A DNA stretch of 64,000 bases from a virus, in IMG/VR virus record IMGVR_UViG_3300023296_001674; one strand, written 5' to 3'. Below are positions 9,040-56,425 of the stretch, piece by piece; within the stretch, counting starts at the first letter, position 1; every line of letters starts with the position of its first letter. Under the pieces are notes generated by a model. That model saw only the letters and a list, made by a program, of their open reading frames with translations, had not been told where the DNA came from and made no database searches. The position numbers were made by a program, and so were the translations under genes.

Positions 9040-9933
9040 ATGAAATGCGAAAATGGTTGCGGCAAAGAATCTATATATATAACCAAGCGTGGAAGGCATA
9101 TATGCGCCAAATCTGGAAATTCATGTCCCGCTGTTAAAGAGAGAAAAAAACTATCGTATTTGAAAAAATATGGAGTTGAAAATCCGCAACAATCAAAAGA
9201 AATAAAAGATAAAACAAAAAAAACAAATCTTGACCGATATGGTTCAGAATATATTGTTATTTCTAAAGATTTTAATAAAAAAAGCAAAAAAACATTAATG
9301 GAAAATTATGGTGTCGAATATAATATGCAATCGGATATAATACAAAATAACAGAAGAAAAAAATCATTAGATATATATGGCGTAGATCATCAAAGTAAAC
9401 GTGAAGACATTAAAGATAAAAAAAGGCAGACGTCATTAAAACGATATGGGGTAGAAAGTTATTTTCAAACCGATGAATTTAGAGAAAAATATATAAAAAC
9501 AATGTTGGATAGATATGGCGTCGAGAATCCCATGCATGATAAAAAAATAAGAGAAAAATGTATTAAAGCTGCCATATCTTCATATTATAAAAAGGGCATA
9601 GGTATATCGTCTAACGGTGAACAGCGATGGCTTGATAGCCATAATATAGATATAAAAAATAGACAAAAAGTTATTGAATGTAACAGTGGCAAAATTTATA
9701 GTGTTGATGCATTAGTTGATAATACGGTTTATGAATATTTGGGTGTTTTTTGGCACGGACATCCAAAATATTTTGATCATGAAAAAATTAATACAGTCGT
9801 TGATATATCATTTGGCGAGTTATATATAAAAACAACACAGCGCATTAATGATATTATTGACACTGGATATGAAATTATTGTAGTATGGGAAGATGGAACA
9901 AATTTTACAGGAAATGAAATACATGAGACGTGA
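9040..9933 (+). CDS. Homing-endonuclease-like protein (Zn-ribbon, tandem YGV repeats, restriction-endonuclease-like C-terminal domain)
   Basis: N-terminal CxxC...C..C. About 7 repeats of (K/R)YGVEN..Q......K...T. C-terminal NTVYEYLGVFWHGHP...GELY...GYEIIVVWE is homologous to the C-terminus of 14165..15295. Its 3' end overlaps the start of the topoisomerase gene. Confidence 0.6.
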   Translation: MKCENGCGKESIYITKRGRHICAKSGNSCPAVKERKKLSYLKKYGVENPQQSKEIKDKTKKTNLDRYGSEYIVISKDFNKKSKKTLMENYGVEYNMQSDIIQNNRRKKSLDIYGVDHQSKREDIKDKKRQTSLKRYGVESYFQTDEFREKYIKTMLDRYGVENPMHDKKIREKCIKAAISSYYKKGIGISSNGEQRWLDSHNIDIKNRQKVIECNSGKIYSVDALVDNTVYEYLGVFWHGHPKYFDHEKINTVVDISFGELYIKTTQRINDIIDTGYEIIVVWEDGTNFTGNEIHET

Positions 9934-12052: not shown

Positions 12053-12256
12053 ATGACAACTGCTACGAAAGAAGAACAAATAATGTCTGCTTTTTATCTT
12101 GTTGGTAATAACGATACCGAACATGATATTAGAGCATGGTGGAAACAATATGGTGATTTATACGACGAAGTATTTGCCGATGAAAATAACAGAAAACGAT
12201 CCCAAGAAATAGCCGATGAGTTATGGATTGAAAAATGTCCACTTGACAAATCATAA
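12053..12256 (+). CDS. Hypothetical protein
   Basis: ATG 12053 follows a GAGAGGAA RBS. The listed 11960 start overlaps the preceding gene. Confidence 0.5.
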   Translation: MTTATKEEQIMSAFYLVGNNDTEHDIRAWWKQYGDLYDEVFADENNRKRSQEIADELWIEKCPLDKS

Positions 12257-12271
12257 ATAATGTAGTATAAT
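12243..12271 (+). promoter_or_regulatory. sigma70-type promoter candidate (full consensus)
   Basis: TTGACA (12243-12248), 17 nt, TATAAT (12266-12271). ATGTAGTAT box at 12260-12268. 31 nt before the ATG at 12302. Confidence 0.6.
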
Positions 12272-12301: not shown

Positions 12302-14182
12302 ATGGTCAATAAAGATGAAGAAATTGATGCACTCAATCCATATCAACACTCGCGGTTGCGTACAGAAGTGTATAGTGGTTCAAGACAACCACACACCCAA
12401 GAAGTTATCATATACAATGAAAAACATGAACCAATAATCGAAGAAGTTACGTGGATTCCTGCATTATTAACATATTATAGAGAAATAGTCGATAACGCTT
12501 GTGATGAAGTTATCGGTCTTGGCAATGGCAATCGCGTCGACATAAACTTTGATAAAGACACCTTCGTGTTTAGTTGCACGGATAATGGTAGAGGTATTCC
12601 TATAAAGCCGGTTTCGAAAACTGATGATACACCGATGGCAACCGCCGTATTGACTAGAACTATGATGGGAAGAAATTTTAGAGAGCGCAAACAAGTTGGT
12701 GGACAGAATGGTATGGGTGTAGCCATTTCTGTATATTGCAGCAAGTGGTCTAAGGTAGAAATTCGCCGTGATAAAAAATTGTTTACACAAAGTTTCGCGG
12801 AACACGATATTGAATTAATGATCGAGTTTCCTAAAACAAAAAAAGATAAAAATGTTACCACTGGAACAAAAATAACTGTATCACCAAGTGAAAAGGTGTT
12901 TCATGGTGGATTGATTATGCCTGAACAATTTTTATATTCACGTATATTTGATGTAGCATTGGCTAATCCTACTGTGCAAATATTTTATAACGGTAAGCGC
13001 ATTCGTGTTAGACCGGCAAGTGAAAAAACATTATTTCCTAACGATGATACCGTGTATATCGACATTCGTGAAAATGCATTTCGATCACGATTTATATTGA
13101 AACCAGATTTTCGTGTTGGTGATGTAATGATGCATTCGATTGTAAATAACATACCTGTTTTTGATGGTGGTTCACATATCGATGCTTTCACCACCGCGTT
13201 CTATTCTGGCTTACTTAATGCTATGGCATCGCAAGCAAAGAAACGCAAATTGACGTTGCATAGAAACGACGTCAACAGCGGATTATTAATATACAATATC
13301 ACAACTATGGATGCTCCTGATTTTAACTCACAAGCCAAAACAAAATTGATCAATGAAGATGTTGGTAAGATAATCAAAAATTATTTTACTGATGAAAAAG
13401 TATTCAAAGATATTATTAAAAAGAATCCAACATGGGCCGAATCGATATTAGAACGTTGTGAAGCAAGAACGCAGAAAAAAGAAGAAAAGGATGTTGCAAA
13501 ATTATCCAAGAAAAATCTACGAGGGCGCGTTCCTGAATTGCTAGATGCTGCTGGTAAAGATAGAAGCAAGTGCATACTATTGCTTGGTGAGGGCGATTCT
13601 GCTGTATCAGGCATACCACCAGTGCGCGATCCTGACATTCATGGCGTATTGGGCATTCAAGGTAAGATCATGAACGTTAACGGCGAACGTCCAAAGAAAG
13701 TATTAGATAGTGCAACGCTGTCATCATTGATGACAACCATTGGCTTAGTTATGGGGCAAGTAACTGTTCGCAAAGAAATGAACTACGGTAAAGTTTACTT
13801 TGCTACTGATGCTGACCCTGATGGATTAAATATTGCTGCATTGTTAGCCAATTTCTTTTATACTTATTGGCCTGAATTATTTGACCCTGATAAAGAACCT
13901 GTGTTCTACATCTTCAATACGCCGTTTATTATTGCCCGTAAAGGAAAACAAAATAAATATTGGTATTCACACGACTTTAATGATTTCATACCAACTGAAT
14001 TTAAAGGATGGGAAATAACAAGAGCAAAAGGTTTAGCGGCATTGGAAGAACCTGATTGGATTTATTCATTGGCTAAACCCGATTTATACCCGCTAACTGA
14101 TGATGGCAGAATGGTAGAAGCATTAGATTTGATATTTAATTCGGATTTAGCGGACGCACGCAAATTATGGATCGGACTTTAA
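12302..14182 (+). CDS. DNA topoisomerase II large subunit (T4 gp39+gp60 equivalent, GyrB-type ATPase + TOPRIM)
   Basis: GHKL ATPase motifs EIVDNACDE, DNGRGIP, GQNGMGV. TOPRIM LLLGEGDSA and ATDADPDGLNIAALL. Single uninterrupted ORF. Confidence 0.9.
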   Translation: MVNKDEEIDALNPYQHSRLRTEVYSGSRQPHTQEVIIYNEKHEPIIEEVTWIPALLTYYREIVDNACDEVIGLGNGNRVDINFDKDTFVFSCTDNGRGIPIKPVSKTDDTPMATAVLTRTMMGRNFRERKQVGGQNGMGVAISVYCSKWSKVEIRRDKKLFTQSFAEHDIELMIEFPKTKKDKNVTTGTKITVSPSEKVFHGGLIMPEQFLYSRIFDVALANPTVQIFYNGKRIRVRPASEKTLFPNDDTVYIDIRENAFRSRFILKPDFRVGDVMMHSIVNNIPVFDGGSHIDAFTTAFYSGLLNAMASQAKKRKLTLHRNDVNSGLLIYNITTMDAPDFNSQAKTKLINEDVGKIIKNYFTDEKVFKDIIKKNPTWAESILERCEARTQKKEEKDVAKLSKKNLRGRVPELLDAAGKDRSKCILLLGEGDSAVSGIPPVRDPDIHGVLGIQGKIMNVNGERPKKVLDSATLSSLMTTIGLVMGQVTVRKEMNYGKVYFATDADPDGLNIAALLANFFYTYWPELFDPDKEPVFYIFNTPFIIARKGKQNKYWYSHDFNDFIPTEFKGWEITRAKGLAALEEPDWIYSLAKPDLYPLTDDGRMVEALDLIFNSDLADARKLWIGL

Positions 14183-15295
14183 TTTTATTTTCTTCCAGTC
14201 TCTTTCCCACATTGTAATGACATTATATCCTGCATTTATTAACATTAATTCTTTTTTAATAGTATTATCATATAATTCACCCATTGTGCATTTTGTTCGT
14301 TTATTATAAACCGATCTATCAAATATTTCTGGATTGCCGTGCCAATAATCGCCATTGAATTCATAAACAGTGTTGGTTATTGGGTTATAACCATCTACAA
14401 ATTTATCATTGATTTTTTGTTCTAATATTATATTTTTATCATTTAAACTATTGAACCATTCGGTTGCTGGTTTTGATATACGATACCTACATGATGGACA
14501 TCCGGTACCCATTTTGTGTGAATTTGCCTCTTGATAAAATTCGCCATGTTTTGGACATATTATAATTATTTTTTCAACGCATCCATTATATTCGGTTTTT
14601 GAATAATTGTATTTGTAATTATGTATAATTTCTACCTGTTTAATGTATTCTTCGGTTGATATTAATTTGTCTTTATAAAAGCATTTGATGCATCCACCGC
14701 CATTATAATGCGTATCGATTCGTTTTTTAAAAATTCCATGTGTTTTACATATTATTTTTATTTCTTGTTTATAGTTAGTATATTGATTGATTAACGAATA
14801 GTCATATTTATTATCGTGTACAATATTAAATAAATTTATCATATCGATGTGTGTTTCAAATTGTTTTAATTTATTTCGTCTTATTATTTCACTACATTGT
14901 TGACAGCCTTGACCTTCTAAATGCCTTGACGCTTGTGTGATGAATTTTCCATGCTTTTTGCATATAATTGTAATTTTATCATGTGAGTGTGTGTAGACAG
15001 TATCCGTGTAATCATATTCATTATCAAATATTTTTTTTGATTTTTTAATAAATTCTTGAATATTGCTTTTGTTTTTGATTTTATTTTTAATTCCTGCGCT
15101 TATTCTACCGCATTTATAACAGCCGACCCCTTTTTTATGTTGCCATGCCATTAATTCAAAAATGCCATGTTCTTGACATATAATTTTAATTTTTGTATCT
15201 GCATTTTTATAATCAACTAATGAATAATCAAATCGATTATTCCATTTTTTAACAAATCGATCAATAACAATAGCAGTGGTTAATTTGCTTGACAT
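14165..15295 (-). CDS. Homing-endonuclease-like protein (repeated Zn-ribbon modules, restriction-endonuclease-like C-terminal domain)
   Basis: Five repeats of (Y/F)DYS...Y.....KI.IIC..HG.F......H..G.GC..C. C-terminal NTVYEFNGDYWHGNP...MGELY...GYNVITMWE is homologous to 9040..9933. Its 3' end overlaps the topoisomerase gene by 18 nt. Confidence 0.6.
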   Translation of the reverse strand: MSSKLTTAIVIDRFVKKWNNRFDYSLVDYKNADTKIKIICQEHGIFELMAWQHKKGVGCYKCGRISAGIKNKIKNKSNIQEFIKKSKKIFDNEYDYTDTVYTHSHDKITIICKKHGKFITQASRHLEGQGCQQCSEIIRRNKLKQFETHIDMINLFNIVHDNKYDYSLINQYTNYKQEIKIICKTHGIFKKRIDTHYNGGGCIKCFYKDKLISTEEYIKQVEIIHNYKYNYSKTEYNGCVEKIIIICPKHGEFYQEANSHKMGTGCPSCRYRISKPATEWFNSLNDKNIILEQKINDKFVDGYNPITNTVYEFNGDYWHGNPEIFDRSVYNKRTKCTMGELYDNTIKKELMLINAGYNVITMWERDWKKIKLKSDP

Positions 15296-15317
15296 GGTTT
15301 ATATACCTTGATATAAT
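15289..15317 (+). promoter_or_regulatory. sigma70-type promoter candidate (full consensus)
   Basis: TTGACA (15289-15294, overlapping the start codon of the minus-strand gene), 17 nt, TATAAT (15312-15317). Confidence 0.6.
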
Positions 15318-15791: not shown

Positions 15792-15994
15792 CAACATTAT
15801 TGCGCGAAGGAATCAGAGATAATGCCGGTGTGGCATCAACACTTGCTTTACATCGATTAGGGTTTCCTGACGTCACCAGTGTCCTCATTGGTAATACTTA
15901 TGAATTTGATTACGAAGGAGACGTTGACGAAATCGTAAAAGAGTTGTATAATCCAGTAATGGAAGATTATACAGTGGAGGTTATTGAAGAATGA
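15776..15994 (+). CDS. purS: PurS-like protein (FGAM synthase small subunit family)
   Basis: RVTTLLREGIRDNAGVASTLALHRLGFPDVTSVLIGNTYEF....DVDEIVKELYNPVMEDYTVEVIE parallels the PurS pattern V.V.LK.GVLDPQG.AV..AL..LG...V..VR.GK..E...........V..MC..LL.N.VIE.Y..E. Confidence 0.6.
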   Translation: MRYRVTTLLREGIRDNAGVASTLALHRLGFPDVTSVLIGNTYEFDYEGDVDEIVKELYNPVMEDYTVEVIEE

Positions 15995-16338
15995 AAGTAT
16001 ATTTAGATGATTATCGTAAAATACCAGATGACACTTGGACTTTGGCTACGTCATATCAAAACTTTAGACATGTTATTGAAGATGGCGATGAAGAGATAAC
16101 TGAAATATCATTCGACCACGATTTGGGGGTAGATAGTAGCAACCATGTAGCCTTAACAGGCATGGATGCAGTTAAATGGCTAATCAGCCATATAGAATGC
16201 TTTGCACCAGAATTAAATAGATCATTAAAAGCCATATATGTTCATAGTGCAAATCCAGTTGGTGCAGAAAATATACGTTCATACTGCAAAAGCGCACAAA
16301 AGCACGGAATTTTAAATATGGACGTGGTCGTTAAATAG
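15991..16338 (+). CDS. Conserved phage protein, receiver-like (cyclic-phosphate-processing receiver-type) fold suspected
   Basis: MKVYLDD.R..P..W......F.......ITEISFDHDLG......TGMDAVKWL pattern, recalled from a widespread phage family. Not verified. Confidence 0.4.
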   Translation: MKVYLDDYRKIPDDTWTLATSYQNFRHVIEDGDEEITEISFDHDLGVDSSNHVALTGMDAVKWLISHIECFAPELNRSLKAIYVHSANPVGAENIRSYCKSAQKHGILNMDVVVK

Positions 16339-16707: not shown

Positions 16708-17169
16708 ATGAAAATTAGATATAAAATAGGAGATTTGTTGGATTGTCCTGAACAAACAATATTGCAGGGAGTTAATATGCAGATCAAAATGCGATCTGGG
16801 ATAGCCAAAGCAATTCGTGAAAAATACCCAGAAGTTTACGAAGAATATAAAAAAGTCGCAGAAACAAAGGGTTTACACCTTGGTGATGTTATATGGGTGG
16901 CAACAGATGATAAATTGATAGCCAATGGTGTCACACAAGAATTTTATGGCAGAGATAATAAGTGCTATATTGATTACGAGGCGATACGAACGGTAATGAA
17001 AACTATTAATTCTTGTGCTATATTGAGTAATATTACGCATGTATCCATGCCATTAATAGGTGCAGGATTGGGCGGCGGCGATTTTAGTATAATTTCAAAA
17101 ATTATTGAAGAAGAGTCCAAGAATTTTCAACCGGTTGTGTATGTATTAACAGAATCTGATCTTCCGTGA
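16708..17169 (+). CDS. Macro-domain protein (ADP-ribose binding / hydrolase family)
   Basis: GVNMQIKMRSGIAKAIREKYPEVYEEY and HVSMPLIGAGLGGGDF match macro-domain signature segments. ATG 16708 preferred over TTG 16705. Confidence 0.7.
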   Translation: MKIRYKIGDLLDCPEQTILQGVNMQIKMRSGIAKAIREKYPEVYEEYKKVAETKGLHLGDVIWVATDDKLIANGVTQEFYGRDNKCYIDYEAIRTVMKTINSCAILSNITHVSMPLIGAGLGGGDFSIISKIIEEESKNFQPVVYVLTESDLP

Positions 17170-18037
17170 GTTTTTTACATTGCCAATTTTTTAATAGTCC
17201 GCGATTGGGTTTATAGTTTTCGTTTTTCCACATTTTGGTTAAAGTCCATATTGGCAAGTTCAAATCTTCCGAAAACGTGATTAAAGTTCCGTATGCTAAA
17301 TATATATTGTTATCGGGTGCAACAATCCTCCAAATATGTTTTTTTGCATTATTATATTTTAATGTATCTGTTCTTTTTTTAATAGACTGTGGTGATAATG
17401 GGTTAGTTTTTATACCTTTATTCCATGGAATATTACCTTTTAGTGTGTTGCTTATTTTCTGTCTCACATCTAATCGTTTTGATGAACTAAGAGCGCCCGT
17501 TCTGCCAGTTGGTCTACCGGTCAAAGTTTTGCTTATTTTTTGTTTTATATTATCTGCATTAGAACCAAATCGTTCCATAAATGATTTTCCTTTATGGCGT
17601 AAACTCATTTCATATTTTATTTGCGTCGCTTTTTCTTTTCCGTATCTTTGTTCTAATGTTATACCTTTTAATTTTTCTCTAAGTAAATTTTTTGTATATT
17701 CTGAAGTTTTGCTACCTTTTCTGTTTGGTGGTCTAAGACCAAGGCATATATTGGTTAATATTCCGTTTTTTTCAAAATCTATTCTGCCATATTGACGAAT
17801 TAATTTATCTTCTAAATCATATGCATCATTTTCAGATAAATGTTTTGATACAATATGTATAATAGGATGTTGACCATTTTTCAATATATTTTGTATTTTT
17901 TTAAACTTTCTTTTATTATCAGCATTGGCTTCAGTTTCCGTCAAATGTATGAGATAGCGATTTTTGCATCCTTTGCCGATATAAAACGGCTCATTGGTAT
18001 ATGGATCATAATAAATATAGACATAATAAGTATTCAT
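17102..18037 (-). CDS. GIY-YIG homing endonuclease (Seg-like) with NUMOD3-type repeats
   Basis: Starts MNTYYVYIYYDPYTNEPFYIGKGCKNRYLIH (GIY-YIG), with an AGGAG RBS 8 nt upstream on the minus strand. The listed start (18193) adds an implausible 52 aa. Repeated K.K.S..L.G. modules. Its 3' end overlaps the macro gene by 68 nt. Confidence 0.85.
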   Translation of the reverse strand: MNTYYVYIYYDPYTNEPFYIGKGCKNRYLIHLTETEANADNKRKFKKIQNILKNGQHPIIHIVSKHLSENDAYDLEDKLIRQYGRIDFEKNGILTNICLGLRPPNRKGSKTSEYTKNLLREKLKGITLEQRYGKEKATQIKYEMSLRHKGKSFMERFGSNADNIKQKISKTLTGRPTGRTGALSSSKRLDVRQKISNTLKGNIPWNKGIKTNPLSPQSIKKRTDTLKYNNAKKHIWRIVAPDNNIYLAYGTLITFSEDLNLPIWTLTKMWKNENYKPNRGLLKNWQCKKLTEDQILLIHTQPVENSWTLLQ

Positions 18038-18091
18038 GCTGTAAACTCCTGTATAGTTTATAGTGTAATTGGGTGTTCCATCACCGCGAAT

Positions 18092-18123
18092 TACATTACT
18101 ATTTATTAATAAATAGTAATGTA
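18092..18123. repeat. 32-bp perfect palindrome
   Basis: TACATTACTATTTATT|AATAAATAGTAATGTA. All 16 pairs verified. Lies in the divergent intergenic region between 18037(-) and 18170(+). Confidence 0.9.
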
Positions 18124-18169
18124 TCCAACAATTGAGGATTAATATTATGCAGGTGAATGACACAATATA

Positions 18170-18784
18170 ATGGCAAATAATGATATACATCAACTTTTAG
18201 TTGAATCAAAACAACGAATATCCAAGTATGATGATATGCTAAACGAAGCAGAACGCACTTTTCGTGAATTAAACTCCCGTAATATGCAAGCAACGTTAAT
18301 ACAGATCGAAGATTTCTTTGACTCCAATAATCTATATGCATTTAATAATTGGTTTGAAGGTATCGTTTGGGATGGCCCAAATATTACCAAATATTGGATT
18401 GAATTAACGTTGAAATATACGTATGAATCAATGCCAGAGCCAGTTGCGATGAATCGTTTCAGTGAAATGGGCGTTCAATATGATTTTGTTGATACCATAA
18501 TAATGAAATCCAAAAAAGTTCAAAATCCTGACGACCTTGATCCAGTGACACGTAAGCCAAAAGAAGAAAAAGAACGTATATGGTTGGTTTCACTTAAGAT
18601 TCCTAGACATTTAGTTGAAGACCCAATGCCTGATGATTCAGAAGATGTTGATAATGTTCAAAACTTAGAAGCCACTGCGAACGCTGAAGAAGAAGCTAAA
18701 GGCAATCCAGACATGGAAGAAGCAGATGATATGACTGCGGACGATGGCGCAAGCGATGAAGGCGGCGACGAACTTGATTTATAA
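18170..18784 (+). CDS. Hypothetical protein with strongly acidic C-terminal tail
   Basis: The C-terminal ~55 aa is D/E-rich (…EEADDMTADDGASDEGGDELDL). Confidence 0.5.
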   Translation: MANNDIHQLLVESKQRISKYDDMLNEAERTFRELNSRNMQATLIQIEDFFDSNNLYAFNNWFEGIVWDGPNITKYWIELTLKYTYESMPEPVAMNRFSEMGVQYDFVDTIIMKSKKVQNPDDLDPVTRKPKEEKERIWLVSLKIPRHLVEDPMPDDSEDVDNVQNLEATANAEEEAKGNPDMEEADDMTADDGASDEGGDELDL

Positions 18785-22517: not shown

Positions 22518-22594
22518 GGGCGTGTATTCCAACCGGTAGAGAAACGAGACTTAAAATCTCGACAGTGTGGGTTCGAATCCCACCACGCCTACCA
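22518..22594 (+). tRNA. tRNA with anticodon UAA (Leu by anticodon) but class-I architecture; CCA encoded
   Basis: Hand-folded cloverleaf. Acceptor GGGCGTG/CACGCCT (G1-U72). D loop with GG. Anticodon stem CGAGA/TCTCG, loop CTTAAAA (TAA at 22552-22554). 5-nt variable region ACAGT. T arm GTGGG-TTCGAAT-CCCAC. Discriminator A, then CCA. Confidence 0.75.
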
Positions 22595-22598
22595 CATA

Positions 22599-22676
22599 GC
22601 TTCCGTCGTCTAACTGGATAAGGCACCCGACTTCTAATCGGGATATTTGTAGGTTCGAGTCCTACCGGGAGCACCA
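22599..22676 (+). tRNA. tRNA-Arg (anticodon UCU); CCA encoded
   Basis: Acceptor GCTTCCG/CGGGAGC. D stem GTCT/AGGC. Anticodon stem CCCGA/TCGGG, loop CTTCTAA (TCT at 22633-22635). T arm GTAGG-TTCGAGT-CCTAC. Discriminator A, then CCA. The variable region reads as 6 nt. Confidence 0.8.
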
Positions 22677-22677
22677 A

Positions 22678-23679
22678 TTAAAAAATATTAATATTTTTTA
22701 AAAACATATGAAATGAACTGTATTCGATATTAAAATATTGTTGAATTTCATTTGGGGTTTTTTTATCTATATGATACATATGGCATAATATATTTATGCT
22801 GTTAAGTATATTGCGTTCAGTGTTATATGGATCACCCAACACAAAATTAAACATTTTGGATAATACTTTTGCTGATATTTTGTTGGGATTATTCCAACCT
22901 AGTGCTGGTTTCAATTTGTTATTATATACACGACCTGTTATAGATGAATATTTAATCGGAGTATATGGATGTTTAATCGCAGAACGTCGATTGATATGTT
23001 TTATATTGGCTGTATCGATTTTTTGTTCAAATAAATAATTGTCAAATGGTTCATTGTGTTTAGTTGCCCATTTTAAAATATTATCAAATAATATTTCTTT
23101 GGATATTGCATTATCTGAACCTTTTAATGAATTAACCGAATTCATTAAAAATTGACAATTAGCAGGATGTGAAATAATATCAGGATGCATTTTTAAATCA
23201 AATCCGCTTTTTACTGAAAACATATGATCATGGCAGACGCCATCTTTTTTTGTTAAGGGATTATAAAATCCATGCTTAACATATAAATCATAACCAAGAA
23301 ATGTATCATAATATTTTTCAATAAATCTAAATGAACATAATTGTTTATATCGTTTATATTGCACGCCGTGCGTTGTAGGCAAACCATTACTTTTTATTAA
23401 TGACGCACGTTGCCGCTGTCTTGATTCGGTTGTGCGTATATTATTAGAATGTATACCACCACATTTGGACGAACAAAAAATATTACCATTTTGATGCTTT
23501 TCGTATGATATAATAGATTTACATATGGAACATAATTTTGGATTTTCTTCATATACATTTTTAACTTTAGCACGACTGTATTTTTGTGAACAGGTTTGTG
23601 TACAAAATTTGCTATGACGCTTATCTTTTGGTGTAAACTCTATTTTACACTGATGGCATATATATTTGTTTGTTGACAT
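22678..23679 (-). CDS. HNH-type homing endonuclease-like protein with N-terminal Zn-ribbons
   Basis: CHQCKIEF...FCTQTC and CSICK...FCSSKC ribbons. DGVCHDHMFSVKSGF....HPANCQFLMNSVNSLKG resembles an HNH (H-N-N) core. Its stop codon lies 2 nt from the tRNA-Arg CCA end. Confidence 0.55.
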   Translation of the reverse strand: MSTNKYICHQCKIEFTPKDKRHSKFCTQTCSQKYSRAKVKNVYEENPKLCSICKSIISYEKHQNGNIFCSSKCGGIHSNNIRTTESRQRQRASLIKSNGLPTTHGVQYKRYKQLCSFRFIEKYYDTFLGYDLYVKHGFYNPLTKKDGVCHDHMFSVKSGFDLKMHPDIISHPANCQFLMNSVNSLKGSDNAISKEILFDNILKWATKHNEPFDNYLFEQKIDTANIKHINRRSAIKHPYTPIKYSSITGRVYNNKLKPALGWNNPNKISAKVLSKMFNFVLGDPYNTERNILNSINILCHMYHIDKKTPNEIQQYFNIEYSSFHMFLKNINIF

Positions 23680-23783: not shown

Positions 23784-23810
23784 TTGACAAACCTTATTTT
23801 CTCCTATAAT
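23784..23810 (+). promoter_or_regulatory. sigma70-type promoter candidate for the fliG/fliM-like operon
   Basis: TTGACA (23784-23789), 15 nt, TATAAT (23805-23810). The spacer is shorter than ideal. 32 nt before the ATG at 23842. Confidence 0.4.
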
Positions 23811-23841
23811 ATGAACACATCATTATAAAGGGAGAAATAAT

Positions 23842-24021
23842 ATGTTTGATATTTTAGAAGATGCATTTGATATTTTAACTGCGCCAATTCGCAACACGGT
23901 TGATGTACTTGAAGGATTGTCGGAAGGCGAACTTCGAACGCATGCTATTGCGCAACTTGGTTCGAGTGCGGTTGCGGGTTTGGAAGCATATGAAATCATT
24001 GAGCTATTGTTGGAAGATTAA
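23842..24021 (+). CDS. Hypothetical 59-aa acidic helical protein (missed by the 60-aa cutoff)
   Basis: AAGGGAG RBS 7 nt upstream. MFDILEDAFDILTAP...EIIELLLED. TAATG overlap with the next gene. Confidence 0.55.
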   Translation: MFDILEDAFDILTAPIRNTVDVLEGLSEGELRTHAIAQLGSSAVAGLEAYEIIELLLED

Positions 24022-24257
24022 TGGCAAAAGTTATTTTACGCGAACCAGTAGATGTAATACGTTGGTGGCCGGGGGGCGACGAAATTGAAAATGTTACCGA
24101 GGTTCGTCATACTCAACTAGGATTTATTGGTCATTTGCAACAAGATGGAAATACGCTCATGGTAAAACCTGGTGATTATGTATTGTCATTTCTTGGAAAG
24201 CAAATAATAATGAATGAAGAAATTTTCAAAATCAACTTTAAAGGTCACAAAGAATGA
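24021..24257 (+). CDS. Hypothetical protein
   Basis: Translationally coupled on both sides (TAATG, ATGA). Confidence 0.5.
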   Translation: MAKVILREPVDVIRWWPGGDEIENVTEVRHTQLGFIGHLQQDGNTLMVKPGDYVLSFLGKQIIMNEEIFKINFKGHKE

Positions 24258-24646
24258 ATCAAGATATATGGGATCGATTAGATAAAGTTAGCACATTCAG
24301 GCTTACTTCATATTTGAAAAATGAATATCCACAAGTGGTTGGTGTCATTCTTTTCAATTTGTCTAGGAAAACGGTTGCTGGTGTAATGGATGAATTACCA
24401 GAAAATTTTGCTATGGAAGTTGTAATGCGTATGTTGCGCACGGATGATGTTCGCAAGGAAGTTATTGATATCATTGAAGACACATTACAGGATGAATTTT
24501 TTAATAATGTAGTCACTTATGACAATAAAGAAAAATTTATAGGTGATATGTTCGATGTTATGGTTCATTCTGATCACATGGTAGAACAGCTTGAAGAACG
24601 CAATCGTGAAATGGCTGAAAAAGTTAAGGGGTATATGGACACATGA
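24254..24646 (+). CDS. FliG middle-domain-like protein (flagellar rotor/switch homolog)
   Basis: LKNEYPQVVGVILFNLSRKTVAGVMDELPENFAMEVVMRMLRTDDV aligns by eye with E. coli FliG [46 protein letters not shown] (recalled), including the EHPQ-type motif. Confidence 0.7.
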   Translation: MNQDIWDRLDKVSTFRLTSYLKNEYPQVVGVILFNLSRKTVAGVMDELPENFAMEVVMRMLRTDDVRKEVIDIIEDTLQDEFFNNVVTYDNKEKFIGDMFDVMVHSDHMVEQLEERNREMAEKVKGYMDT

Positions 24647-25161
24647 TTAATCAATCTATGATAGAAGCATTAATACCGACAATGAAGAACACTGCATTTA
24701 AAGGTATTTGCACTAATCCAGATATTCAACTTGATAATTTGGCACTTATGACATTTGGTGAATATGTTGATACAATACCGCTTCCTGCAATGTGTTGTAA
24801 GTTTGATTTTGCTGGATATGCTGCATTTATCATATTTGATAGTTCATTGATATATTCTATGGTTGATGTTTTATCTGGTGGTCGTCGTGGCACCGCTGCA
24901 ATGCGAATTGAAGGCAGGGGATATACAACAATTGAAAAGCGCATTATTAAAGAATTAGTAATGGAATCAATTGTGAATGAGTTATTGTATGAACTCAATA
25001 TATTATCAAAAGATATATATATGGAAATAGAACATATAAGTCTCAGTCCAGATAATATGAGAAAGCAATTATCTGAAAATGAAATGGTTCAAATTGCACG
25101 AATGAGAGTAGACTTGGATGACCGTGGTGGTCGTTTCGAATTATGCGTTGAAGAACATTAA
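24643..25161 (+). CDS. FliM-like protein (N-terminal peptide + middle domain; no FliN-like C-terminal domain)
   Basis: AAFIIFDSSLIYSMVDVLSGGRRGTAAMRIEGRGYTTIEKRIIKEL versus E. coli FliM GLVVFSPSLVFIAVDNLFGGDGRFPTKVEGREFTHTEQRVINRM (recalled). GGxG motif present. N-terminal INQSMIEALI resembles LSQAEIDALL. Confidence 0.75.
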   Translation: MINQSMIEALIPTMKNTAFKGICTNPDIQLDNLALMTFGEYVDTIPLPAMCCKFDFAGYAAFIIFDSSLIYSMVDVLSGGRRGTAAMRIEGRGYTTIEKRIIKELVMESIVNELLYELNILSKDIYMEIEHISLSPDNMRKQLSENEMVQIARMRVDLDDRGGRFELCVEEH

Positions 25162-25173
25162 AGGAGAAATAAT

Positions 25174-25950
25174 ATGGGTTGTGACATTCACATATATCCT
25201 GAAATATTTAAAGACGGAGTTTGGCAATTATCTGAACCGTTAAATCTTGCTGCATGGTGGGATGAACGTATTTTAGATGAAGCAGATGATTATGATGCTC
25301 TTGATGAAGAACATAAATCTATGTCGAAAGAGCAAATATTAGAACAATATAAAAACGACACGCGTGTTCAATGGGAAGGGCCGTGGGATTCTAATTATTC
25401 ACTTAGGGGTAGAAATTATAATTGGTTTTCGATACTTGCCAATGTTCGCAATGGATATGGATTTGCTGGTGTAGACACTGGTGATAGTTTTGTTCCTATT
25501 CATGCACCTAATGAAGAACCACGCGGTCTTCCTGATGATGTGTCATCGGATGTTAAAAAACTTTCTGATAGTTGGGATTCCGACGGTCATTCACATTCAT
25601 ATAACACACTGCAAGAATTATTAGATTATGATTGGGATGGTCAAACACGGATAACACGTGGTATTGTTAACGTTGAGAATTTCAAAGAATTTAAAGAAAA
25701 AGGTGAACCATCAGCATGGGCGGGTGGTGTTTCTAATGTAGAAATAGTTTCTAACGAAGTCATGGCACAAATCGCATTAGGAATTTATGGCACACTTGAT
25801 AGAAATGAAACTAGATATTATACTCATGTAGAATGGAAAAATACTTATCGTGAAAATGTTGGTGCAAGTTATTTGCAAGGCATTCTTGATGAACTAACAA
25901 AATATGGTAAACCAGAAAATGTAAGAATAGTATTTTGGTTTGACAATTAA
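25174..25950 (+). CDS. Hypothetical protein
   Basis: AAGGAG RBS. Begins MGCDIHIYPE. No family recognised. Confidence 0.55.
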   Translation: MGCDIHIYPEIFKDGVWQLSEPLNLAAWWDERILDEADDYDALDEEHKSMSKEQILEQYKNDTRVQWEGPWDSNYSLRGRNYNWFSILANVRNGYGFAGVDTGDSFVPIHAPNEEPRGLPDDVSSDVKKLSDSWDSDGHSHSYNTLQELLDYDWDGQTRITRGIVNVENFKEFKEKGEPSAWAGGVSNVEIVSNEVMAQIALGIYGTLDRNETRYYTHVEWKNTYRENVGASYLQGILDELTKYGKPENVRIVFWFDN

Positions 25951-25958
25951 GGAGATCA

Positions 25959-26174
25959 ATGATGAAACACAATCTTCGGCATATAAATGATGCCCCTATA
26001 GATAAACCATTTATTGCATATAAAACGGATGGCGATACTGTTATAGCAAAATATGGAGATAGCAATCAACCAGATAATTTACCTTGGGTTAGCGAAAGTC
26101 GTGGTTTTGGTAATGAAGATTTTATTGCTTGGCAACCGCTGCCTGATCTATACATGAATCGTGGTGATTTGTAA
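25959..26174 (+). CDS. Hypothetical small protein (DUF551-like C-terminus?)
   Basis: AAGGAG RBS. C-terminal FIAWQPLPDL resembles the W.PLP ending of DUF551 phage proteins. Confidence 0.45.
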   Translation: MMKHNLRHINDAPIDKPFIAYKTDGDTVIAKYGDSNQPDNLPWVSESRGFGNEDFIAWQPLPDLYMNRGDL

Positions 26175-26611
26175 TGCCACATGACAAAATTATAAAAGCG
26201 CGTGAAGAAATGCGCAAATCATATGGTTTTTATGGAAAACTATTAGATGTGTTTGATATACACGCAACTGGCAATGATGAACAACCTGTTTCGACCATTG
26301 CTATATATGATAATATTATAGAGTATAATCCTGATTTTATAAATGATTTAGAACATGATCAAATTATATTTGCTTTGGCGCATGTTATATTGCTTATGAT
26401 ATTCAAATGCAATGAACGTCGTGGTGATCGTGATCGGTTAATATGGAACAGTGCGTGCAATTATTCAATTAACAATATACTTGTTAAACAAAACATAGGT
26501 CGCAAGACTAATGAATGCTTGCTATCTGATGATTATGATGATATGATAATTGAACAAATTTACGAAGATTTAATATCAAAAGGATTCAATTATGGGCAAG
26601 GTAAAAAATAA
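26174..26611 (+). CDS. DUF2201_N-like putative metallopeptidase-domain protein with degenerate HExxH
   Basis: ...YNPDFINDL....IIFALAHVILLMIFKCNERRGDRDRLIWNSACNYSINNIL follows the family pattern (..HE.lH....H..R.....lWn.A.D..iN..L), but HExxH is replaced by LAHVI. Confidence 0.45.
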   Translation: MPHDKIIKAREEMRKSYGFYGKLLDVFDIHATGNDEQPVSTIAIYDNIIEYNPDFINDLEHDQIIFALAHVILLMIFKCNERRGDRDRLIWNSACNYSINNILVKQNIGRKTNECLLSDDYDDMIIEQIYEDLISKGFNYGQGKK

Positions 26612-26639: not shown

Positions 26640-27083
26640 ATGATGGGTAAATCCATTTCACAAAACCGCAAAGTGCGCCATAACTATACCATTGATGATG
26701 AGTATGAAGCGGGTATTGTATTACAGGGCAACGAAGTAAAAAGTTTGGCTGTTGGACAGTGCAGCATTGCTGAATCGTATGTTACCATTGAAGGCAATGA
26801 AGCATTTTTGGTTAATGCGCATATTGATCCATATGATTTAGGTTCTAAGTTTGTGGCACAAGAGCCACGACGTCGGCGCAAATTATTGTTGCATAAACGC
26901 GAGATAAAGAATTTGCTTGTCAAATCGCAACAAGGGGGTTATACTATAGTTGCATTATCGATGTACTTCAATGACACGGGCAAGGTAAAACTTAAAATTG
27001 CCACTGCCAGAGGAAAGAAGAACTACGATAAGCGTGCCACGGAGAAGCAACGTGATTGGGATCGTGATAAGCGCAATTTATAG
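26640..27083 (+). CDS. smpB: SsrA-binding protein SmpB
   Basis: NRKVRHNYTIDDEYEAGIVLQGNEVKSL....I.ESYV...........H.DPY.......EPRRRRKLLLHKREI....K.QQGGYTIVALSMY....KVKLKIATARGKK.YDKR matches SmpB end to end. Confidence 0.9.
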   Translation: MMGKSISQNRKVRHNYTIDDEYEAGIVLQGNEVKSLAVGQCSIAESYVTIEGNEAFLVNAHIDPYDLGSKFVAQEPRRRRKLLLHKREIKNLLVKSQQGGYTIVALSMYFNDTGKVKLKIATARGKKNYDKRATEKQRDWDRDKRNL

Positions 27084-27471: not shown

Positions 27472-28503
27472 ATGTTTAATTTTAAAGATGTAGGATGGAA
27501 AAAATTAACGGCAGTGGGGACAATTAGTTTCTTTGTTATATATTTCATTGTTACGAGCATTCATGTTCAATACGCATCGGTTCGACCACATGTACTCAAT
27601 GAAAACATTATCGTATATGATGAAATTGATGTTGTTGGTTATCGAACGATTTCTGCTGCAAGGCAGCTTATCACAATGTTGACTAATAAAACTGGTGGAT
27701 ATATGTCTAACGACAAACTACCACCATATAGTTGGGCTGATGATATGCCTAATTGGGAGTTTGGTGTTATTAAAGTTCTTCGTGGTTATAACATTGTTCT
27801 TCGTGAAAACTTTACACGATCACAAACACAATCAGTTGAAGATAAAGACGCGGTTGCAGCGATGACTGCACTTAACGTAGACAATCTTTCATGGATGTTC
27901 CCATCAGTTGAAGGGTGGCCTTGGACAAAGGGCGAGTATGTTAAATCCAGCGAATCGTTGTTTGCACTTGAAAAACGATTACTTGATAACAATCCTGCCG
28001 ACGGAAACTTTTTCACACGTGCTACATCGTTGGCGACATTTATTAATCGCAGCAATAAAGTTTTAGGTAGCCACAGCCAACTATTATCGGCATCTGTTAC
28101 CAAAGAACGCATTAACACCGATATGACGGGTGACAAAAATGCAGAAGAAGCCAAACCACAAGAATATATCAACTCTGATATTTTAACATCGTGGTTACAA
28201 ATCGATGATAATTTTTGGGAAGCACAGGGTTCAATCTATGCATTGAGTGTTATCCTTAAAGCGATGGAAAGCGATTTTTATAAAGTGCTTGAAGATAAGA
28301 ACGCACTGCCAGCGCTACGCCAGATCATTGTTGAACTGGAAACTGCTCAGGGATTGGTTTATTCGCCACTAATTATTAATGGTGCAGGTTTAAACTCGAC
28401 GCCTTATGGACTTGGTGCAAACTATTCGTTAATTTTGGCAAACTACGTTAGCCGTGCAAGTGCTGCATTGACTGATTTGGAAAAGTTGCTTAAAAACGGA
28501 TAA
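27472..28503 (+). CDS. Membrane-anchored protein, DUF2333-like (tentative)
   Basis: N-terminal TM (LTAVGTISFFVIYFIVTSI). NDKLPPYSWADDMPNWEFGVIKVLRGYNIVLRENFTRSQTQSVEDKD resembles my recollection of DUF2333 proteins. Unverified. Confidence 0.45.
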   Translation: MFNFKDVGWKKLTAVGTISFFVIYFIVTSIHVQYASVRPHVLNENIIVYDEIDVVGYRTISAARQLITMLTNKTGGYMSNDKLPPYSWADDMPNWEFGVIKVLRGYNIVLRENFTRSQTQSVEDKDAVAAMTALNVDNLSWMFPSVEGWPWTKGEYVKSSESLFALEKRLLDNNPADGNFFTRATSLATFINRSNKVLGSHSQLLSASVTKERINTDMTGDKNAEEAKPQEYINSDILTSWLQIDDNFWEAQGSIYALSVILKAMESDFYKVLEDKNALPALRQIIVELETAQGLVYSPLIINGAGLNSTPYGLGANYSLILANYVSRASAALTDLEKLLKNG

Positions 28504-33678: not shown

Positions 33679-34956
33679 ATGCAATTACTTGTCGATAATG
33701 AGTTAAAGTATGGAAATTTGTTGTTGGTTGATTCTGCACATTTAATCGCACGGTATAATCGTGCATTGAATGTTATATGTGGAAAAAAGACCGAGTTGGA
33801 AATTTTTCATATTGATGGCAGTGGATATAGCCCCGAAGTCGCGAAAGAACTCGACGATAAAGAATATATGAATCCACACGGTGTTAATAAGAAAATCATC
33901 ATTTTGTCATTAGAACAAGAAGGTCTTCCAGTATTGGATTCTTATTTCTCCACTACACGTGATTTGATTAGACGATTTATTCAAGATAATAAATCTGAAC
34001 TTTTTGCACTAACGAGTCGTGATGTGGTTTATGGCGAACTGGAGAATTCAACATTCAAAATTGAAAGTTTCACGGATTTGCTATGTATTAAACGCATCAT
34101 ATTTGAAATCAATACAGTTGGTGATTCCATCAAAAAAGGAAAACAGCTTACCAGTTTGATTAAATCATTTATGGTTAACGATAATATGTGGCATGATGAA
34201 AAAACGGTTGAAGAGATTATTGGGTTATCATCTGTGGTTGGTGATATTCGTCGACACCAAGTGACGCCGTCGCACACCGAATATAAACAAATCAATTTTT
34301 ATTCACGGCATTACGGCGGCGTATATGTATTCAATCACGACAATGGTGATTATACAGTTATTGCGCATGAAGAACAATACAGAAAAGAGGCTGAAACTTG
34401 TCATTTAAATGTTAAATTCATCCACATAGATGATAAAAAAGAAGTGATTGCATTTTTAAAGAAGAATAACATCGTTGAGATGTATAGTGATCGATATTTG
34501 CGCAAGAATATAGATTTGATGCGTGAAAAAATTAATTTCATCGCAATTGATCATATGTCACAGACGCACACAGACGCAGATTTGACGGATATTAGCGATG
34601 ATGAAATTAAAAAATATATTTATGATCACTATGATGAGTTACCTAAAGAGTTCCGCGTTCTTTCAAAAGCAGTAAAATTGATTGATAACGGATATTCTGT
34701 GGATTTGGAATCTGGTTCTGATGATATATTTTTCTACTTTGCTCGTTCTAGCGATCACGATCTCAAAGATTTGGTTAATCAATTGATTGCGTATTACACG
34801 CCGTTAGATTTTCTAAATGTGTTTATATCCAACAAACGTGCTTTTTATGAGTTGTATGACGAGTGGTCCAATAGTAAAAAATCATTTGTTGTTAATTACT
34901 TGGTTAGAGAATATCAACAAGATAAACACAGAATTAAAGGTAAATTCTTTGGGTAA
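33679..34956 (+). CDS. Hypothetical protein
   Basis: GAAGGGA RBS. 425 aa with no motif recognised. Confidence 0.55.
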   Translation: MQLLVDNELKYGNLLLVDSAHLIARYNRALNVICGKKTELEIFHIDGSGYSPEVAKELDDKEYMNPHGVNKKIIILSLEQEGLPVLDSYFSTTRDLIRRFIQDNKSELFALTSRDVVYGELENSTFKIESFTDLLCIKRIIFEINTVGDSIKKGKQLTSLIKSFMVNDNMWHDEKTVEEIIGLSSVVGDIRRHQVTPSHTEYKQINFYSRHYGGVYVFNHDNGDYTVIAHEEQYRKEAETCHLNVKFIHIDDKKEVIAFLKKNNIVEMYSDRYLRKNIDLMREKINFIAIDHMSQTHTDADLTDISDDEIKKYIYDHYDELPKEFRVLSKAVKLIDNGYSVDLESGSDDIFFYFARSSDHDLKDLVNQLIAYYTPLDFLNVFISNKRAFYELYDEWSNSKKSFVVNYLVREYQQDKHRIKGKFFG

Positions 34957-40004: not shown

Positions 40005-42263
40005 ATGCCTAACGGATTTGACCAACGACACATTTCTATAATGCTTCAAAAAGCAGTAACATTAGCAGAAAAATACGATCACATATATATAACATTAGAA
40101 CATATCAGTTTAGTATTACTGGATGATAAGTCCGTTGATCACGGTATTAAAGAATGCGGCGGCGACATAAAACTTATTAAAGAAATGGTTTTGACTGCAT
40201 TGTTAGATGAAGCAGATATAACTGAAGCAGGAACTGAGCCACAACCAACAAGAGCAGTCATCAATGTTATTCAACGGGCAATCCAGCATTCTGTTGGATC
40301 AGGCCGCAATACAGTTGAACCATTTTATCTTATGGCAAGTTTGTTAATGGAAAAAGATTCCGTTGCTGTATGGGCATTAGCACAACAAAATGTTGATCGT
40401 GTAAGTTTTATTAGAACTATAAATGTTCCACCATCAGGACAAAATAAAGGTGGCCCGATGAATGAACTCGATCCTATAACGGGTCAACCTATGCCACAAC
40501 CTGAAAATGCATTAAGAGATTATTGTGTTAATTTGAATGAAAAGGTAATTGCTGGTGATATTGATCCATTGATAGGTCGCGAAAAAGAAATTGAACGGTC
40601 ACTACAAGTTTTATCTAGACGACGCAAAAACAATCCATTGCTTGTTGGTGAGCCAGGAGTTGGTAAAACCGCTATTGCAGAAGGATTGGCATGGAAAATT
40701 GTTAATGAAACCGTGCCAAATTATATCAAAGATTCTATTGTATATTCGTTGGATATTGGTGCACTTATGGCTGGTGCCAAATTTCGCGGTGATGTCGAAG
40801 AACGATTAAAAGCGGTTCTTGCCGGATTGGAAGAAGTTGGCAAAACCAACAAAACCATATTATTCATTGATGAAATTCATACCATTATTGGTGCGGGTGC
40901 TACATCAGGTGGAAGTATGGATGTTAGTAACCTATTGAAACCCGCACTTGCTGCTGGTTCATTACGTTGCATGGGTTCCACCACATATGCTGAATATAAT
41001 AAGTATTTCGAAAAAGATGCGGCACTTAAGCGTCGTTTCAAAAAAATTGATATTATTGAACCTACTGTTGATGAAACAAAAACTATTATCAAAGGTTTGG
41101 CAAAATATTTTGCTGAGTATCATGAAGTTAAATTCACAAAAGAAGCATTAATGAGTGCAGTTGATTTATCCGTTAAGCATATACACGATAACAAACTTCC
41201 AGATAAAGCGATTGATGTTATTGATGAGGCGGCGGCAGCACAAAGATTATTCGATGGCGAAGATCGCCTTGAAATCATTGATGTTAAACAAATTGAAGAA
41301 ACCGTTGCAAAGATTGCAAGGATTTCTATTGATGCAACATCAAAAACCGACAAAGATAGATTGCGTAACCTTGCAGAAAATCTAACAACACATGTGTTTG
41401 GTCAAGAAGAAGCGATTGATGTTCTAACCAAGGCAGTTAAATTAAGCAAATCTGGATTGCGTGAAGAAAATAAACCGATTGGTAATTTCTTATTCAGTGG
41501 ACCTACAGGCGTAGGTAAAACCGAAGTTGCAAAACGTCTTGCCGATGAACTAGACGTTCCGTTGGTGCGATTTGATATGTCTGAATATATGCAAAAGCAC
41601 GAAGTGTCTAAACTTATTGGATCGCCACCTGGTTATGTTGGTCATGATGATAGTGATGGATTTTTAATTGAAGAAATTGATAAGCATAATTATTGTGTTT
41701 TATTGTTAGATGAAATCGAAAAAGCACACCAAGATATATTCAACGTTCTGTTACAAGTTATGGATAATGCAACACTAACCGGTGGTCGCAATAAAACAGT
41801 GCGCTTTGACAATGTTATAATCATCATGACATCAAATGCTGGTGCATCAGACCTTGCAAAAGAAGTTATGGGATTTGGCAACGAAGAGCGAGTTGGCGAT
41901 GATCTTATAGCCATCGAAAAATTATTTACACCTGAATTTAGAAATCGTTTGGATAAAATCGTTGGATTTAAACCATTACAACAAGAAATAATGAATAAAG
42001 TTGTTGTTAAATTTATAAAACAATTGAAAGTTCAACTTAAAACACAGGATGTTAAACTTACGTTGATGAAGAAAGCCATTGAGTGGCTTGCCGTTAAAGG
42101 ATACAGTTCCAAATATGGAGCACGACCACTTTCGCGTGTAATAGACAATCATATCAAGCAGCCAATATCTGAAGAGTTATTATTTGGTCAACTTGAAAAT
42201 GGTGGTTCAGTTAAAATTGACATCGTTGAAGACGAACTTGAATTCACTTACAAACCAAAATAA
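40005..42263 (+). CDS. clpA: ClpA-type double-AAA+ unfoldase
   Basis: N-domain [67 protein letters not shown]2 [13 protein letters not shown] and [10 protein letters not shown]. About 750 aa without a long ClpB middle domain. MGFG loop in the ClpP-docking position. Confidence 0.9.
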
Positions 42264-56295: not shown

Positions 56296-56425
56296 CTTGA
56301 TTTTCCTTGGCTTTTATGATAGTATAAATAATAAAGTAGTGGGACAGCCCAACTTCCTTGGCGGGTTTTAGTTGTTGAAACCAACTAATTACCACTATAT
56401 CTATTTATTTTTTGGAGTTAAAATC

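Follow-up and report, generated by a model that had tools for sequence, protein, structure and literature searches.

Bacteria brake their own flagellar motors, and phages use flagella as receptors. The YcgR-type PilZ brake and the EpsE clutch of B. subtilis are small, soluble and host-encoded; both are proposed to act on FliG or FliM so that rotation stops or is uncoupled while the flagellum stays intact. On the phage side, the Pseudomonas phage proteins Tip and Aqs1 inhibit the pilus ATPase PilB. Here we describe an operon at positions 23842–25161 of the IMG/VR virus record IMGVR_UViG_3300023296_001674 (the whole stretch of 64,000 nt is called the window below), in which two genes are almost certainly genuine phage-borne fragments of the flagellar switch proteins FliG and FliM. 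The fragments are the two halves of the FliG_M–FliM_M contact at the centre of the C-ring; the anchoring parts (FliG_N, the L2 helix of FliM and the FliN-like domain) and the torque helix are missing. A possible reading, to which we give a probability of roughly 0.4, is that the pair interferes with the host switch complex as a structural poison. The encoded proteins would resemble YcgR and EpsE in being small, soluble and proposed to act on FliG or FliM, but those have unrelated folds and bind the rotor from outside, whereas here the candidate inhibitor is virus-encoded and made of rotor pieces. With Tip and Aqs1 the common ground is the concept of an early phage product that disables a receptor organelle and leads to superinfection exclusion, although organelle and target are different, and Tip and Aqs1 have no homology to their target.

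In the C-ring, the GXXG and EHPQR motifs lie at the FliM_M–FliG_M interface, neighbouring FliG subunits stack through ARM_M and ARM_C, and a hydrophobic patch of ARM-C also contributes to the association with FliM_M (PMC7355467); the Salmonella nomenclature D3, D4, D5 and FliM_mid is that of PMC11087270. The third gene of the operon encodes a 130-aa protein that matches Pfam FliG_M (PF14841) with an E-value of 5.4e-17 (62.2 bits vs. a cutoff of 25), in line with a first-pass annotation that had recognised FliG by eye from the sequence. That annotation had called the protein a FliG middle domain, which turns out to be too narrow. Its limits, set by alignment to alphaproteobacterial FliG, to T. 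maritima FliG (4fhr_B, residues 6–121) and to the TIGR00207 profile (positions 113–238 of 338), show that ARM_M (D3, around residues 14–87) is present, but also helix_MC and ARM_C (D4, around residues 88–130) up to the MFxF hinge. The protein starts at the first ARM_M residue, where FliG_N ends, and its end (...KVKGYMDT) falls at the position of the MFTF hinge in bacterial FliG. D1–D2 (FliG_N, which anchors to FliF) and the stator-contacting torque-helix domain D5 are therefore both outside it; a FliG_N match of 18 bits, which is under the cutoff, reflects internal similarity between ARM repeats. An AlphaFold2 model built with an alignment of homologues (predicted local distance difference test, pLDDT, 75) superimposes on FliG middle domains with a root-mean-square deviation of 1.0–1.4 Å over 66–88 residues. 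Identity to bacterial FliG is around 44%, and the proposed EHPQ-type FliM-docking motif is there as EYPQ, identical to the alphaproteobacterial version (NEYPQ is invariant among the aligned alphaproteobacterial FliGs). Compared with a bacterial FliG such as that of Salmonella (D1–D5), the phage copy thus has homologous D3 and D4 with the EYPQ loop and the LPENFAMEVVMRMLR helix of the alphaproteobacterial protein, but it has 130 rather than around 340 residues, is phage-encoded and adjoins fliM.

The fourth gene, likewise assigned beforehand to the FliM middle domain, encodes a 172-aa protein that matches Pfam FliM (PF02154) with an E-value of 2.8e-22 and 80 bits (cutoff 27) over profile positions 19–180 of 192. 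The predicted GGxG FliG-contact motif is found as GGRRG, identical to that of relatives, and the reported absence of the FliN-like C-terminal domain holds as well: a Pfam scan gives no PF01052 (SpoA, FliN-like) match in this protein, and the match to TIGR01397 covers positions 55–214 of 320. The fragment is the middle domain only, lacking the L1 tether, the domain-swapped L2 helix and the C-terminal domain. Its AlphaFold2 model, also built with an alignment of homologues (pLDDT 78), agrees with FliM in cryo-EM structures of the Salmonella C-ring (template-modelling (TM) score 0.83–0.86 over 167–172 residues) and with crystal structures of FliM middle domains (target-normalised TM 0.74–0.79). 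Profile searches and fold models had been set as tests of the assignment in advance, and both come out in its favour, with significant Pfam matches and folds that agree with C-ring structures; sequence searches of the PDB with the two fragments return FliG and FliM chains only. Judged from their profile scores, both are domain homologues and not functional FliG or FliM, because the scores are far under the NCBIfam equivalog cutoffs (36.7 bits vs. 226.7 for TIGR00207 and 70.4 bits vs. 219.6 for TIGR01397). Relative to bacterial FliM, the phage copy has a complete middle domain with a GGRRGTAAMRIEGR loop identical to that of alphaproteobacteria, but no L1, L2 or FliN-like domain, and a docking motif that is probably vestigial at best. 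The CheC/CheX/FliY family has the same alpha/beta sandwich as FliM_M (Foldseek E 1e-5 to 1e-8), but the phage protein is much closer to FliM in both sequence and structure; a CheC-type phosphatase was rejected, as a regular-expression search found no [DS]-x3-E-x2-N-x22-P active-site motif in it. The view that the pair is devoid of ring-assembly domains is correct for FliG_N and the FliM C-terminal domain, both of which are gone, but not entirely for FliG, where ARM_C keeps one of the two FliG-stacking surfaces.

An important characteristic of the fragments is the uneven way in which they have diverged. Bacterial FliM middle domains of the clade are 84% identical among themselves, whereas the phage copy is 39% identical to them. 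When the 105 FliM positions that are at least 90% conserved in bacteria are counted along the protein (Table 1), 28 of 32 are kept at the interface, as against 3 of 27 in the stretch that follows. Of the 31 conserved positions in the ARM_M core of the FliG fragment, 26 are still there, among them those of LKNEYPQ and LPENFAMEVVMRMLR, as are around half of those in ARM_C. Since divergence is this non-uniform, the sequences indicate that the host-type mutual docking surfaces of the two fragments are preserved, while much of the remainder has drifted.

The N-terminus of the FliM fragment is more ambiguous. The first-pass annotation had likened INQSMIEALI (residues 2–11) to the peptide of FliM that docks phosphorylated CheY (CheY-P). 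The likeness itself is beyond chance: its score of 25 is the highest among 21,440 ten-residue windows from + strand reading frames (the next are 23 and 22), and composition-matched shuffles (6.8 million windows) reach a score of at least 25 at a rate of 4.2e-5 per position, or around 8e-4 for the first 20 positions of one protein, which makes a chance origin unlikely. Against the start of helix 1, the same peptide scores 7 or less. In related bacterial FliMs, the docking motif LNQ[DA]EIDSLLGF is nearly invariant and precedes the first helix (helix 1) of the middle domain by around 40 residues. The phage protein, by its length, begins at helix 1, and AlphaFold2 models residues 4–21 as a single helix; the flexible tether is missing and the conserved Glu is replaced by Met, so that a working docking peptide is a less secure part of the earlier claim than the likeness. 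We regard the latter as a statistically supported resemblance in sequence, not as established homology; an internal deletion may have fused the docking motif onto helix 1.

Relatives of the pair do occur in public phage contigs, which qualifies the earlier statement that no phage system of this kind is described, although the literature agrees with it. The phage-like contigs L003/L004, L088 and L089/L090 (at least five samples, GC content 30–32%) share a FliG–FliM–FliN cassette in the order ribosomal protein S21, (AAA_28), FliG without its N domain (197–203 aa), FliM (368–429 aa), FliN (90–101 aa) and cREC_REC, with an N6/N4 methyltransferase also among the syntenic flanks. The cassette FliGs and two short FliGs (P0290 and P0322) share their first ARM_M residue with the window protein, no longer have the MFxF hinge, have short C-termini and carry a common 9-residue deletion over the segment RAAKMLKED of bacterial FliG, which we take, by alignment to the established E. 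coli residues, as the charged portion of the torque helix. In the window, L003 and L088, fliG and fliM overlap by ATGA, while L089 has a short gap; in the bacteria examined, fliG was not found within 3 kb of fliM. In the cassette FliMs, the CheY-P docking motif is intact (LNQDEIDSLLGF in L003 and L089, LDQDEIDALLSF in L088). The window and the cassettes are thus alike in the start of FliG, in fliM directly after fliG and in motifs of alphaproteobacterial type, but the cassettes keep a full-length FliM with intact motif, FliN and a degenerate FliG D5, none of which is present in the window. Moreover, the window is not syntenic with them, lacks the S21 and AAA_28 neighbours and has a FliM truncated at both ends. 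It does share a Cpn10-like gene and an N6/N4 methyltransferase (48% identity) with L003 and a cREC_REC gene with L088.

A fuller set is found in a 543-kb phage (IMG/VR UViG_3300024239_000011, GC content around 49%), which encodes a full-length FliM and two FliN proteins as well as a full-length FliG around 240 kb away, the latter flanked by virion structural (phrog_11065, E 6e-76) and tail-fibre-like genes. Its FliM_M is on average 78% and at most 87% identical to bacterial FliM_M. From their sequences, these relatives appear to represent steps of capture and reduction, of which the window would be the most reduced: a full-length set would have given way to an anchor-less FliG with the torque-segment deletion plus FliM and FliN, and this to the FliG_MC plus FliM_M pair. 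As a tentative account, somewhat short of an even chance, large phages of motile Alphaproteobacteria captured switch genes and whittled them down to this pair, with a rotor inhibitor or re-programmer as the end product. Such a graded series is a rare chance to follow how a captured host machine shrinks to a single interface. Elements have apparently been gained, too. The FliMs of three phage contigs start with a PopZ-like helix (MEDILASLRRILMEDED, MEDILTSIRRVLTEDDD and MDEILGSIRRILSKDDD; NCBIfam PopZ_fam matches the FliM of L003 with E 7e-7), a motif that is present neither in any of 80 bacterial fliM loci examined nor in the window. By its sequence, this helix may serve polar targeting or mimic the client-binding helix of PopZ.

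The locus itself consists of four + strand open reading frames (ORFs) with overlapping stop/start pairs (TAATG, ATGA and ATGA). The four-gene, translationally coupled operon proposed earlier is borne out at all three junctions, but the transcript probably continues: the 258-aa gene begins 12 nt past the stop of the fliM fragment with a near-identical ribosome-binding site, and because there is no terminator between that stop (25161) and this gene, the operon probably has more than four genes. Other phages, among them those of Paenibacillus and Mycobacterium, have homologues of the 258-aa protein. No Pfam or NCBIfam family matches the product of operon gene 1, and no homologue of operon gene 2 lies beside the cassettes of the other phage contigs. 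The sigma70-like promoter that had been predicted upstream is a good candidate, located in the 162-bp divergent intergenic region 5' of the operon and one of only three perfect TTGACA...TATAAT hexamer pairs in the 64 kb, where 0.24 are expected by chance. The position of these three sites suggests a possible class of host-RNA-polymerase, perhaps early, promoters.

With the fragments described, the preferred reading can be set out, in which the pair interferes with the host switch complex. The operon would be expressed early from a host-type promoter, and its overlapping genes would yield roughly equal amounts of both proteins. These would form a soluble, unanchored FliG_MC–FliM_M unit with contact surfaces that still match the host proteins, and the unit, or each half, would compete for the FliG_M–FliM_M and ARM_M–ARM_C contacts during C-ring assembly or subunit exchange. 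Acting in this way as a dominant-negative cap, the unit or its halves would disable rotation and switching or free them from regulation; the phage might gain from the blocking of superinfection by flagellum-dependent phages, a fixed swimming behaviour or a halt in flagellar assembly. Such interference becomes more plausible because conservation concentrates on the FliG–FliM interface, and because the related cassette has lost the FliF-anchoring domain together with the segment carrying the torque-helix charges. A binder directed at the host would require a host-type interface, and that of the fragments has not drifted from it. In addition, the retention over long divergence of an anchor-less FliG without the torque segment fits interference rather than replacement. 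Several points weigh against this reading. Fragments that bind each other tightly could neutralise one another as decoys, which is a weakness of any decoy model, and the full-length FliM and FliN of related phages, like the full-length FliG of the 543-kb phage, could point to a constructive role. Independent assemblies of the locus are identical over 12.6 kb and 20.5 kb, so variants give no direct measure of selection. Finally, helix 1 and residues 130–150 of FliM would, on the basis of cross-linking work, form the lateral FliM–FliM contact.

What else could maintain such a pair? CheY-P, instead of the rotor, might be the target: the FliM fragment, stabilised by the FliG fragment, would be a soluble CheY-P receptor that offers both the N-terminal peptide and the middle-domain site, and the drained signal would lock the motor in its default state. 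CheY-P is known to bind FliM_N first and then FliM_M and FliN, which fits such a sponge or sensor, and the match of INQSMIEALI to the docking motif, intact in the cassette FliMs and hence common to all versions, is in its favour. We nevertheless consider it unlikely, given the Glu to Met change, the lack of a flexible tether and a peptide that AlphaFold2 builds into helix 1, packed on the domain; moreover, it leaves no role for the FliG fragment or its perfectly kept FliM-binding face. Somewhat less likely is a non-flagellar job for the FliG_M–FliM_M pair, as an adaptor or scaffold that binds, for example, a phage receiver-domain protein or another factor. A cREC_REC gene is indeed found in the window and just downstream of the cassettes in L088 and L089/L090, the surfaces outside the mutual interface have diverged strongly, and the PopZ-like helix gained by some phage FliMs shows functions being added. 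Repurposing does not, however, sit well with a kept interface that is exactly host-type, and the cREC gene of the window is 8 kb away.

Less probable again is that the genes are a remnant, an inherited fliG–fliM–fliN cassette eroding without current function. The window does hold the shortest version of the apparent reduction series, a singleton at 50% clustering with a FliM_M far from its bacterial relatives, but both frames are intact, end at domain boundaries and are still translationally coupled, the predicted folds are complete, and neutral decay does not predict the uneven divergence. Motor maintenance, with the fragments standing in for or adding to the C-ring subunits of the host to keep the cell swimming through a long infection, seems very improbable: every domain by which they could be held in the ring (FliG_N and the FliM L2 and C-terminal domain) and the torque domain FliG D5 are gone, and the scores are far from those of equivalogs. 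For this possibility count the 543-kb phage with its full-length FliG, FliM and two FliN genes, and the exchange of FliM and FliN in working motors, as cited in PMC7355467. An artefact, whether through bacterial DNA wrongly joined to a phage contig or through a contig that is no phage at all, is scarcely credible, although a case for contamination has been made against another jumbo 'phage' that carries flagellar genes (PMC13623518). Here, neighbourhoods agree across separate assemblies, GC content is uniform, the genes are translationally coupled to phage-family ORFs with hallmark phage genes around them, and truncated, divergent genes are not expected from host DNA. A decoy for Zorya or for the stator was rejected by reasoning, the stator-binding domain being absent.

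The phage setting assumed by the first-pass annotation is well founded, since hallmark and replication genes surround the locus and the identical locus is found in independent assemblies, namely in a Logan assembly and on a 570,549-bp contig from ENA; six contigs carry the encoded protein. GC content stays near 35% throughout, with almost all genes on the same strand. Among the products of the window are a clamp loader, PhoH, a DNA polymerase exonuclease subunit, homing endonucleases, a virion structural protein (phrog_13138, E 3e-33), a split T4-type topoisomerase II, a ClpB-like ATPase and two aminoacyl-tRNA synthetases, whereas capsid, portal and terminase genes were not seen within the 64 kb, nor was a FliN-like ORF. 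The large subunit of topoisomerase II is closest to those of Agrobacterium phage Atu_ph07 (490 kb) and Sinorhizobium phage Phosso (469 kb), with 48% identity. Judged by this gene content, the source is a jumbo tailed phage of an Atu_ph07-related lineage; tblastn finds no FliM or FliG homologue in Atu_ph07 or Phosso themselves. The closest FliM and FliG sequences are from Rhodospirillales and Acetobacterales (37–48% identity), with no close donor, and from sequence the host is probably a motile alphaproteobacterium.

Within sequence databases, the pair stands apart. Among 50,697 GenBank phage records, the locus (megablast) and the FliM fragment (tblastn) have no match, and the FliG fragment has one, an unverified faecal 'Bacteriophage sp.' record that holds a full-length FliG. 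No relative of the FliM fragment was found in scans of IMG/VR and JGI metagenome contigs, and HMMER searches of 1.84 billion representative proteins gave nothing closer than 41%; at the 50% clustering level of the same set, the window version is a singleton. PHROGs has no family for either fragment, and BFVD holds no viral protein with a FliM-like fold (no match with E of 0.001 or below, and TM at most 0.23 among the 50 matches listed). In the literature searched, we found no earlier description of a virus that encodes pieces of the rotor switch, neither of phage-encoded FliG or FliM nor of a FliG–FliM–FliN phage cassette; papers on flagellar auxiliary genes and jumbo phages contain host gene lists, generic 'flagellar motor protein' auxiliary genes and the contamination critique of another genome, and no paper was found to mention the accession of the sample. 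The families are known, yet the stand-alone architectures are new and so is the viral setting. If the preferred reading of interference is true, this would be the first virus to target the core of the flagellar motor directly, and it would show a large phage controlling the behaviour of a swimming host cell, with consequences for superinfection exclusion, dispersal and energy use. Fragments that interfere with the C-ring would also provide a natural dominant-negative tool, defining a minimal FliG–FliM unit able to engage a working motor.

Table 1. Features of the switch-fragment locus, of the window around it and of related contigs. Positions are those of the window unless a contig or protein residues are named.
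Feature	Position	Strand	Description
Promoter candidate	23784..23812	+	TTGACA, then 15 nt and TATAAT or 17 nt and TAATAT; consensus match only
Perfect-hexamer promoter sites	12243-12271; 15289-15317; 23784-23810	+	Each directly 5' of a + strand gene or gene block
Operon gene 1	23842..24021	+	59 aa; phage protein, function unassigned; PHROG phrog_13459, E 3e-11
Operon gene 2	24021..24257	+	78 aa; function unassigned; weak PHROG match, E 0.02
fliG fragment	24254..24646	+	130 aa, 15.4 kDa; Pfam FliG_M
EYPQ	24323..24334	+	Alphaproteobacterial form of the EHPQR FliM-docking loop in FliG_M; read from sequence
fliM fragment	24643..25161	+	172 aa, 19.6 kDa; Pfam FliM
INQSMIEALI	24646..24675	+	Residues 2-11 of the FliM fragment; resembles the alphaproteobacterial CheY-P docking motif LNQ[DA]EIDSLL
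GGRRG loop	24877..24891	+	GGXG-type FliG-contact motif; identical to the alphaproteobacterial version
FliM fragment, helix 1	residues 1-24		Conserved positions kept 0/5
FliM fragment, incl. FG.Y...IPLPAM	residues 25-65		Conserved positions kept 12/30
FliM fragment, helix and GGRRGTAAMRIEGR.YTTIE loop	residues 66-100		Conserved positions kept 28/32
FliM fragment	residues 101-150		Conserved positions kept 3/27
FliM fragment	residues 151-172		Conserved positions kept 8/11
Gene after fliM fragment	25174..25950	+	258 aa; phage family, function unassigned; PHROG phrog_10141, E 1e-51
FliG-FliM-FliN cassette	L003 9021-11144 (also L004); L088 2530-4509; L089 8005-10192 (also L090)		
FliM/FliN genes and three-domain FliG loci	L006 7449-9344; L007 7683-8699		IMGVR_UViG_3300024239_000011
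PopZ-like helices	L003 9632-9685; L006 ~7533-7590; L089 ~8683-8735		
Full-length three-domain FliG	L005 4653-5657		334 aa; MT835480.1
FliG_M + FliG_C protein	L091 1-1032		343 aa; Pseudolabrys MAG, contig edge
cREC_REC receiver-like protein	15991-16338	+	115 aa; Pfam E 5e-24
SmpB	26640-27083	+	tmRNA partner
Translation-related set	22518-22676; 49372-50673; 56372-57643		tRNAs and aminoacyl-tRNA synthetase genes
Likely mobile endonuclease genes	9040-9933 (+); 14165-15295 (-); 17102-18193 (-); 22678-23679 (-)		
ClpB-like/DUF6638/DUF2333/DUF2201_N genes	40005-42263; 33679-34956; 27472-28503; 26174-26611	+	

A few further observations concern the switch proteins of other records. The record MT835480.1 ('UNVERIFIED Bacteriophage sp.', human faeces, 75 kb), whose FliG has all three domains, is unannotated and bears a phage label. 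In the 543-kb phage, the FliN genes adjoin a TrpRS-like gene (assigned by eye from the translation). A protein at the contig edge of a Pseudolabrys metagenome-assembled genome (MAG) has FliG_M, FliG_C and faint FliN-like matches and, in the profile search, comes directly behind the FliGs of phage type. A fusion or an artefact of the contig edge could explain it. Four short FliM-like representatives (P0148, P0186, P0196 and P0200) were rejected as phage-type fragments and look like frameshifted or truncated bacterial FliM calls.

Immediately upstream of operon gene 1, an imperfect 14-nt inverted repeat (23798-23811 and 23824-23837, 79% complementary) pairs the -10 region with the ribosome-binding site of the gene; its 5' arm is probably outside the transcript, in which case it likely has no meaning. 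Homologues of the receiver-like cREC_REC protein of the window are encoded just downstream of the cassettes in L088 and L089/L090, and a link between the window protein and the FliM/CheY theme is speculative. The likely mobile genes comprise a homing endonuclease gene, which precedes the genes of both topoisomerase II subunits and ends inside the start of the one for the small subunit, and the few minus-strand ORFs, which encode a DUF723 protein, a GIY-YIG protein and a Cys-rich 333-aa ORF just past the tRNAs. The window encodes SmpB, while ARAGORN finds no tmRNA gene in the 64 kb; other translation-related genes are those for tRNA-Leu(TAA) and tRNA-Arg(TCT), a cysteinyl-tRNA synthetase-like protein and a class II aminoacyl-tRNA synthetase with an anticodon-binding domain. 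Finally, a ClpB-like double-AAA+ ATPase and DUF6638, DUF2333 and DUF2201_N metallopeptidase-like proteins are encoded in one + strand gene array.

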